Virus record (IMG/VR): IMGVR_UViG_3300025671_008697
Length of the DNA stretch: 64,000 nucleotides
Origin: a virus
Lineage: Duplodnaviria; Caudoviricetes
Strand: one strand, 5' to 3'
Position numbers and translations under genes: made by a program. Shown here in pieces: positions 52,372 to 53,453 of this stretch. Under the pieces are notes generated by a model. That model made no database searches. It was given only the letters and a program-made list of their open reading frames with translations, and was not told where the DNA came from. Every line of letters starts with the position of its first letter. Position 1 is the first letter of the stretch.

Positions 52372-53181
52372 GTGATTGACTATTTTCCAGTTACGGTTCC
52401 TTATAGGGTCGGTCCCACCATGGCCGCTAATGAAGGTCCAGCATTTGTTCCTGTAGAGGACATGTCTCACATAACATCCAAGTTAGCAGAATTAGACAAG
52501 TATGGATCCGATCTGTTTGATTGCCGCAGGCCTGACTTGGTTGAAAAAGCCTCCCAAGTTCTCGGATTAAATCCCATAAGTGACATAGTAGAATTTGCAT
52601 TTTTGTTTAAAGAAGATGTTGCTATTATGCACAAAGGCGTGCTGGAAGCAATCTGTTTCTGCTACCCCAGCAGTTGGATACCAAGTGAACGTATTGGACA
52701 AAGCCTGGCAGAGATACACGCTCCTGTTGCAGATGGCGAACTGCTACGACAAATGAGTCAACGTATCGCCGAAGTTATTGCCACCAAAAGTATGCGTAGG
52801 CATGTTTGGACCATAAGCACTACAGGCGAACTCAGTAATCATCCTAAAATGGCAAAGCCCGAAGTTACTGACCAAACTACTATAGAGGACCTCTACTTTA
52901 GAATGGAAACACAGACCACAATGCCTGTGGGCGATGGCGAAACCGCAGTGTTTTTGGTCAGAGTTGATACTTGTCCATTAGGGGAAATTTGGCAAGACCC
53001 TGCTCGGCGCGATTTGATTATTCAAAGTGTTGACACAATGTCCGATAATGTGCTACAATACAAGAACTTGGTTAAGATTAAAGAAGTCTTAAATAAGAGT
53101 ATTGCTGTAAACCCCGCAAGGGAAGAGGCGAAGAGAAAGGTGTTCTGGACGCGGGTTCGACTCCCGCCACCTCCACCATAA
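52372..53181 (+). CDS. DUF3445/heme-dependent oxidative N-demethylase alpha-like protein
   Basis: EDVAIM...AICFCYPSSW...IHAPV...RHVWTI...FRMETQT...VFLVR; the last ~27 codons overlap the tmRNA acceptor piece. Confidence 0.65.
   Translation: MIDYFPVTVPYRVGPTMAANEGPAFVPVEDMSHITSKLAELDKYGSDLFDCRRPDLVEKASQVLGLNPISDIVEFAFLFKEDVAIMHKGVLEAICFCYPSSWIPSERIGQSLAEIHAPVADGELLRQMSQRIAEVIATKSMRRHVWTISTTGELSNHPKMAKPEVTDQTTIEDLYFRMETQTTMPVGDGETAVFLVRVDTCPLGEIWQDPARRDLIIQSVDTMSDNVLQYKNLVKIKEVLNKSIAVNPAREEAKRKVFWTRVRLPPPPP
53100..53178 (+). ncRNA. ssrA: two-piece tmRNA, acceptor piece (3' tRNA-like end)
   Basis: GGAC-GCGGG-TTCGACT-CCCGC-CACCTCC-A-CCA T-arm and acceptor strand; 5' boundary approximate. Confidence 0.88.
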
Positions 53182-53248
53182 GCACATGGTCTACTGGTGA
53201 ATGAGATAATAATGCTCATAATAAAAGTCCAAACTGTGTGTTTATGAT

Positions 53249-53430
53249 GGGGGTGTACAGGTTTCGACAGGGCACGGAGTAACAGAGTGGACAGCAGGGC
53301 AATGCGAAAGCCCAAGGGTTAGGACTACCTGGCCGAAGAAGCAAAAAACTATAAATGCCAATGATGAGGTATTTGCTCTAGCCGCTTGAGGCTAAGCCGG
53401 GGTTGGTAACCTTGTAACCCAATAACCAAA
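53249..53430 (+). ncRNA. ssrA: two-piece tmRNA, coding piece (tag ANDEVFALAA)
   Basis: GGGGGTGTACAGGTTTCGAC 5' end; resume codon GCC 53357 to TGA 53389; 3' boundary approximate. Confidence 0.9.
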
Positions 53431-53453
53431 AAGGCTCTCCGGAGCCTTTTTTC
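53430..53453 (+). terminator. intrinsic terminator after ssrA
   Basis: aaggctc-tccg-gagcctttttt. Confidence 0.85.

Follow-up and report, generated by a model that had tools for sequence, protein, structure and literature searches.

Two-piece tmRNAs of bacteria and phages

The two-piece tmRNA of betaproteobacterial chromosomes was described by Sharkady and Williams (2004), as related in later accounts (PMC11915505; PMC9004378). Older lists of phage tmRNAs hold one-piece or truncated forms only (PMC4131195): the mycobacteriophage Bxz1 group and Bacillus phage G carry a one-piece ssrA, and phage DS6A carries a truncated, TLD-only RNA. A more recent survey of 18,146 phage genomes (Buchholz et al., 2022; PMC9004378) yielded 133 distinct tmRNAs; ARAGORN rates 53 of them as two-piece, and 50 of the 53 are marine or aquatic in origin. 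The same study describes a two-piece ssrA in the OM43 phage Melnitz and reports pelagimyophage cases as well (PMC9004378). A 2025 tmRNA database contains 79 bacteriophage sequences (PMC11915505).

The locus considered here lies in a 64,000-nt stretch of viral DNA (the window). It is very probably a genuine, intact, circularly permuted beta-type tmRNA gene (ssrA), borne by a large uncultured phage and working as proposed below. Permuted phage tmRNAs are a published, common kind, and the gene in the window is an ordinary further example. The initial annotation had supposed that phage tmRNAs are mostly one-piece and that standard tRNA scans miss the permuted form. Neither premise holds, since two-piece molecules make up 53 of the 133 distinct phage tmRNAs (PMC9004378) and are abundant in IMG/VR, and ARAGORN, a routine scanner, detects them by default. 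The earlier impression of rarity may stem from the older lists, in which phage tmRNAs are one-piece or truncated throughout.

A survey of phage genomes, proposed at the outset as a check, points the same way. Two pattern scans of IMG/VR recovered the permuted signature (a T loop, the 3' acceptor strand with CCA, 14-75 nt, then the 5' acceptor strand with GGTTTCGAC) in at least 119 contigs and in 56 contigs; the patterns fixed several positions, and the first count is a lower bound. ARAGORN makes permuted calls in 168 of 175 fetched contigs, which sets a minimum for IMG/VR, and GenBank annotates cases in Stenotrophomonas phages. All 17 fetched contigs passed to Rfam score above threshold for RF01850, RF04321 or both. 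Among cultured phages, a beta-type permuted tmRNA is confirmed in three: Marzo, IME-SM1 (L002) and vB_Af_QDWS595. The record of Stenotrophomonas phage Marzo annotates the gene as a tmRNA with identical coordinates.

Two of these viral loci have RNA neighbours of their own. In Alcaligenes phage vB_Af_QDWS595 (OK149171.2, L248:645-1065) the permuted tmRNA is unannotated, and directly after it comes a tRNA with anticodon TTA that ARAGORN labels tRNA-Stop and that may be of suppressor type. On a 31-kb viral contig, a GOLLD RNA (RF02032, 182 bits; L070:120-579) adjoins a tRNA cluster and a permuted tmRNA.

Comparison with described systems

Melnitz, Pelagibacter phage Mosig and their relatives resemble the window in carrying a complete, ARAGORN-permuted ssrA in a large lytic-type phage genome, with a sigma-70-type (early) promoter ahead of the gene (PMC9004378). 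The Melnitz ssrA is of alphaproteobacterial lineage, however, and its 3' domain contains a glutamine riboswitch (PMC9004378). The RNA in the window is instead a beta-type one (RF01850), and Rfam scores no riboswitch family in the window. Compared with the one-piece ssrA of the Bxz1 group and Bacillus phage G, the gene in the window is permuted; compared with the TLD-only RNA of DS6A, it is complete.

The three cultured phages are closer in kind. Marzo, IME-SM1 (Menderavirus) and vB_Af_QDWS595 match the same families as the window (RF01850 at 94-96 bits, RF04321 at 111-120 bits) and share with it the ARAGORN permuted call and tags of the ANDx type. The tags themselves, VAANDDSYTVRIAA and ANDNVYAAAA, differ from the ANDEVFALAA of the window, and the sequence likeness is confined to the tRNA-like domain (~42-51 nt at 84-98%). 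The tmRNAs of the cultured phages lie inside tRNA clusters, whereas that of the window stands alone, ~9 kb from one tRNA.

Chromosomal betaproteobacterial two-piece tmRNAs have the gene order, tRNA-like domain, P2 helices and terminal hairpin found in the window, as well as a tag of the same ANDExFAxAA style. Their scores range from 160 to 331 bits and their intervening segments have a median of 29 nt and a maximum of 49 nt, as against 137 bits and 70 nt. Because 137 bits falls well below the scores of chromosomal Rhodocyclaceae, the RNA in the window is diverged. It further differs from the chromosomal genes in being phage-borne, in lacking an accompanying smpB in the sequenced part and in having viral nearest relatives.

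Structure of the tmRNA gene

ARAGORN predicts a permuted tmRNA with the tag ANDEVFALAA at 53086-53480 (+). The whole RF01850 (beta_tmRNA) model matches at 137.3 bits (cut-off 84, E 8e-42), RF04321 (tmRNA_permuted) matches over its full length at 110.4 bits against a gathering score of 47, and RF01850 is the best-scoring member of the clan. The region 52000-55500 contains no second T arm or CCA end, so the gene is not of the one-piece kind, an alternative that the initial annotation had itself raised in the form of a second CCA end downstream. Judged by its sequence, the tmRNA gene is real and probably functional.

The architecture first proposed is borne out by the features in Table 1. As claimed, 70 nt separate the T arm and CCA end from the 5' acceptor strand, which lies downstream; the two ends pair with G3-U70, two helices join the pieces, and the tag frame is followed by a terminator. 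The acceptor stem has seven pairs (G1-C72, G2-C71, G3.U70, G4-C69, G5-C68, U6-A67 and G7-C66), so that both the alanine identity pair G3.U70 and an encoded CCA are present. The P2a strands form 7 of 7 pairs, and the distal P2 region has several non-canonical pairs in the Rfam model alignment. The resemblance of the tag to betaproteobacterial tags was also rightly seen, given the rank of RF01850 in the clan and the Rhodocyclaceae tags ANDERFALAA or ANDEQFAIAA.

Table 1. Features of the tmRNA locus, in coordinates of the window
Feature	Position	Strand	Details
Upstream ORF, HODM_asu-like/DUF3445	52372..53181	+	269 aa; Pfam PF11927, E 1e-27
Sigma-70-type promoter-like site	53030..53059	+	TTGACA 53030-35, 18-nt spacer, TACAAT 53054-59
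Acceptor piece of precursor	53066..53178	+	5' limit inferred from promoter
Distal P2 strand TTGCTGT	53102-08	+	Within acceptor piece
Hairpin CCC-GCAA-GGG	53113-22	+	Acceptor piece; missing from nearest relatives
P2a strand TGTTCTG	53141-47	+	Acceptor piece
T arm	53151-67	+	GCGGG 53151-55, loop TTCGACT 53156-62, CCCGC 53163-67
Acceptor 3' strand CACCTCC	53168-74	+	Followed by ACCA 53175-78
Intervening segment, 70 nt	53179..53248	+	Predicted removal on maturation
Coding piece	53249..53454	+	Sequence features, ARAGORN, Rfam
Acceptor 5' strand GGGGGTG	53249-55	+	Start of coding piece
GGTTTCGAC motif	53260-68	+	Coding piece
P2a strand CAGGGCA	53268-74	+	Coding piece
P2 strand ACAGCAG	53291-97	+	Coding piece
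Hairpin GGGC...GCCC	53297-313	+	Coding piece
Tag frame	53357..53389	+	Resume codon GCC; ANDEVFALAA 53357-86; stop TGA 53387-89
Candidate pseudoknot	~53399-53429	+	By eye and from layout of relatives
Intrinsic terminator	53428..53454	+	10-pair stem 53428-51, 4-nt loop, T run

The promoter-like site matches the consensus at 11 of 12 positions, has a TG before the second hexamer, is the best such site in 52300-53900 and falls within the 3' end of the upstream ORF. Transcription from it would start near 53066. At the other end of the gene, the terminator hairpin also corresponds to the terminal hairpin of RF01850. Folding of the precursor beats 100 of 100 shuffles (z = -4.4).

The intervening segment has no ORF inside it. 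Its ends, AAGCACA and TGTGTTT, lengthen the acceptor stem into a long hairpin in the predicted fold, and the motifs NAAG.A after CCA and TT.TGAT before G1 are invariant among 12 aligned viral sequences. In the coding piece, the resume codon GCC sits in the conserved context UAAAUGCC. One stem of the pseudoknot region aligns to the Rfam model with one non-canonical pair. A putative H-type pseudoknot (GGGG/CCTT with TTGGT/ACCAA, 53399-53429) was picked out by eye and by analogy with the layout of relatives.

Viral relatives and signs of selection on the RNA

The closest sequences are viral. Locus L055 is 89.6% identical over 270 nt and locus L042 is 86.6% identical; both have the same tag and a 69-nt spacer, and the tag recurs in a further viral locus, L076. 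Compared with L055 and L042, the window has the extra CCC-GCAA-GGG hairpin in its acceptor piece and a shorter 3' knot region. The flanking genes of these two relatives are not homologous to those of the window, and in related phages the tmRNA occupies differing genomic sites.

Varied sites and non-syntenic flanks fit frequent transfer, and they would also suit an inert passenger, acquired from a bacterial chromosome or another phage and kept by chance with no role in infection. We regard such a passenger as very unlikely. The promoter, the terminator, the tag frame and all helices are intact, and RNAs of this kind persist in at least 168 viral contigs, their helices showing compensatory changes. 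Retention and compensatory change together speak for selection on the RNA within phages.

The covariation was assessed in 112 distinct permuted tmRNAs, viral ones plus 14 bacterial. The three T-stem pairs left free by the search pattern are canonical throughout (100%) and show 2-4 pair types; acceptor pair 5 is likewise 100% canonical, with five pair types. At the six free pairs of the cross-piece helix P2a, 94-100% of the sequences are canonical, with 3-6 pair types. The constancy of acceptor pairs 1-4 is uninformative because the search pattern fixed those positions.

Proposed function in infection

In the reading of the gene as a working phage tmRNA, host RNA polymerase would produce a single precursor, beginning at the near-consensus sigma-70-type promoter and ending at the intrinsic terminator. 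Host tRNA-processing enzymes would then excise the stem-closed intervening segment of 70 nt, with RNase P cleaving at G1 (53249) and 3' trimming halting at the encoded CCA (53178). The acceptor and coding pieces would remain joined through the 7-bp acceptor stem and the P2 helices. Charging with alanine by the host alanyl-tRNA synthetase would proceed through G3.U70, and host SmpB and EF-Tu would carry the RNA to ribosomes stalled on broken messages. Translation would restart at GCC (53357) and append ANDEVFALAA, whose ALAA end would direct the tagged product to host Clp-type proteases. The sequence makes it reasonable to suppose a rescue and tagging RNA of the phage's own, which might, as the initial annotation suggested, replace a cleaved host tmRNA. 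The benefit to the phage would probably be extra ribosome-rescue capacity and amino-acid recycling during infection.

SmpB (PF01668) has no match on the contig, which is ~45% complete; the 23 other viral records with a tmRNA that were searched, nine of them at least 90% complete, have none either. Host SmpB is therefore presumably used, and published phage tmRNAs are not defined by an smpB gene of their own. With an smpB match in 0 of the 24 records, phage RNA and host tmRNA must be competitors for SmpB, a point in favour of a decoy or modulator that sequesters host SmpB or AlaRS, or rivals the host tmRNA, in the manner of the DS6A TLD-only RNA. A similar TLD-only molecule strongly inhibits tmRNA (PMC4131195). 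Such a role is nonetheless highly improbable for the gene in the window: unlike DS6A, it has a full coding piece, a resume codon, a canonical 10-residue tag ending in ALAA and a stop codon, and the tag frame is retained across its phage relatives.

A possible partner in proteolysis is encoded outside the window on the same contig. The gene (G000:C1:21794-24085, minus strand; L180) specifies a ClpA-like AAA+ unfoldase of 764 aa with Clp_N, two AAA modules and D2-small; it matches TIGR02639 over the full length at 818 bits, below the cut-off of 993. ClpP was not found on the contig. In E. coli, ClpAP degrades ssrA-tagged proteins, and a functional link between the ClpA-like unfoldase and the tmRNA is conceivable. 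Homologues with 55-62% identity are present in three large tmRNA-bearing viral contigs (G157, G170 and G175).

The ClpA-like gene was also considered as a general partner of phage tmRNAs and rejected, being present in only 3 of 23 records, all apparent jumbo relatives. Jumbo phages, among them PA5oct and Atu_ph07, already have annotated ClpA genes. The low count and these annotations make the gene a trait of the lineage rather than a part of the tmRNA system.

The window adds one sequence to the phage auxiliary RNAs, a class already published; its tag is one that ARAGORN does not recognise and that is common to three of the fetched viral contigs. The wider question is why many large aquatic phages carry a tmRNA yet rely on host SmpB. 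The locus in the window gives no particular purchase on it: the spacer is short, the tag is standard, no gene is nested inside, and the layout as a whole is ordinary.

Bacterial counterparts and origin

Bacterial genes of this type are unevenly distributed. RF01850 scores above cut-off in 4 of 151 genomes in an even sample of the order containing Dechloromonas, and in 35 of 101 genomes of the Dechloromonas family; five apparent 5-nt spacers among the chromosomal genes may be parsing artefacts. The long-spacer pattern occurs in 10 of ~185,000 species genomes, all Betaproteobacteria with gaps of 45-50 nt.

In trees, the window clusters with viral L055, L042 and L085, then with L027, L023 and L115 (SH-aLRT 90-92). 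The smallest group with good support that contains it comprises 47 viral and 40 bacterial rows. Constraining the window's clade to join all bacterial rows gives a tree that is not rejected (p-AU 0.074), and pairwise identity to the best bacterial rows is only slightly below that to the viral rows.

A broader proposal is that the beta-type two-piece tmRNA is largely phage-resident and horizontally mobile, instead of being borrowed from hosts again and again, and that the ClpA-like unfoldase joins in within the jumbo lineage of this contig. The long intervening-segment signature, seen in at least 119 viral contigs as against 10 bacterial species genomes, is cited in its favour, together with the differing sites of the gene in related phages and the second copies in Oxalobacteraceae described below, but we hold the proposal to be speculative and rather unlikely. 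If true, it would allow the tmRNA and the ClpA-like unfoldase to form a phage-controlled tag-and-degrade axis in a jumbo-phage lineage.

Stenotrophomonas and Alcaligenes themselves have one-piece tmRNAs, whereas the tmRNAs of their phages are two-piece. Because of this mismatch, tmRNA type is a weak guide to the host.

Some Oxalobacteraceae have a second, permuted tmRNA (92-122 bits) beside a standard RF00023 tmRNA (214-219 bits), as in Herbaspirillum sp. SJZ106 (L212/L209) and Noviherbaspirillum album (L211/L207). The second copy in Herbaspirillum has an odd predicted tag (AREMSS...). The presence of these lower-scoring second copies allows for flow from phages into bacteria. That the extra copies reside in prophages is unsupported, their 8-kb flanks being chromosomal (permease, PfkB kinase, nucleoside hydrolase and protein kinase). 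A different duplication is seen in the chromosome of Dechloromonas sp. ARDL1 (L216, 3974317-3975042), where two full beta-type permuted tmRNAs (249 and 230 bits) stand head to head, ~65 nt apart.

The viral contig

The window belongs to one linear contig of 167,330 bp that is viral according to IMG/VR, with a CheckV completeness of 45%. Nearly all of its long ORFs lie on the same strand, GC is even at ~40%, and ARAGORN finds 16 tRNAs. The contig encodes a class I ribonucleotide reductase (RNR), a DnaE-like polymerase piece, an ATP-dependent ligase, a DNA methylase, DnaB, PhoH, an SLT/LysM protein, a SleB-type hydrolase, the ClpA-like ATPase and a GH19 endolysin with a peptidoglycan-binding domain. 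Most of its proteins match no PHROG or Pfam family.

The tmRNA was placed on a phage genome from the start, and this holds: IMG/VR records the contig as a virus, and the gene lies mid-contig among phage-type genes of the same strand, with the DNA methylase on one side and the DnaE-like protein, the ligase and others on the opposite side. Neither a capsid nor a terminase gene was found among the contig proteins scanned, which is consistent with a fragment covering about half the genome of a ~370-kb phage. It is scarcely credible that the contig is non-phage or a chimera and the tmRNA a plain betaproteobacterial ssrA, as the 45% completeness and the missing capsid and terminase might suggest, when the gene sits between same-strand phage-type genes with GC ~40% throughout the region, its closest tmRNA relatives come from viral contigs, smpB and clpP are both absent from the contig, and Rhodocyclaceae tmRNAs reach 160-331 bits with intervening segments of at most 49 nt.

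When the tmRNA and a 20-kb stretch were compared with 50,697 phage records by BLAST, no close cultured relative was found, and only the tRNA-like core matched (42-54 nt).

Neighbouring genes

The HODM_asu-like ORF upstream is an overlapping neighbour of the tmRNA and not a component of it. Its PF11927 domain ends at residue 240 (~53091), and its frame stays open across the tmRNA promoter and the acceptor piece to stop at a TAA right after CCA. The position of this stop may be due to chance, since the TAA belongs to the conserved NAAG motif. A read-through transcript of the ORF, if trimmed at CCA, would be left without a stop codon. In the nearest relative, L055, the upstream ORF is unrelated and terminates ahead of the tmRNA.

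Further upstream, a 108-aa ORF (51436-51762, +) belongs to a conserved family with the motifs KVRFAND...RVK, GH.DI.L and AID.AD.KYN. Members of the family adjoin a permuted tmRNA on its upstream side in L081, L112, L127, L130 and L168. The ORF has no match among the 50,697 phage records, and neither it nor a neighbouring 116-aa ORF matches PHROGs, Pfam or NCBIfam.

In some phage permuted tmRNAs, ARAGORN alone predicts tags of 27-33 residues, such as ANASKGEVTVSGKGIRFSARTAQRQTLAV, instead of the usual 10 (L007, L032, L036, L081, L130, L168, L139, L148, L136 and others). The idea that the long tags (28-33 aa) copy the N-terminus of the 108-aa protein was rejected as chance, as alignment against shuffled tags gives z of at most 2.3.

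PhoH, the GH19 endolysin, a PD-(D/E)XK-like protein and the SleB-type hydrolase form a conserved block with the tmRNA in many viral contigs, for example at L074, L009, L013, L021, L049 and L084. In the contig of the window, homologues of the genes of this block are dispersed over 90 kb.
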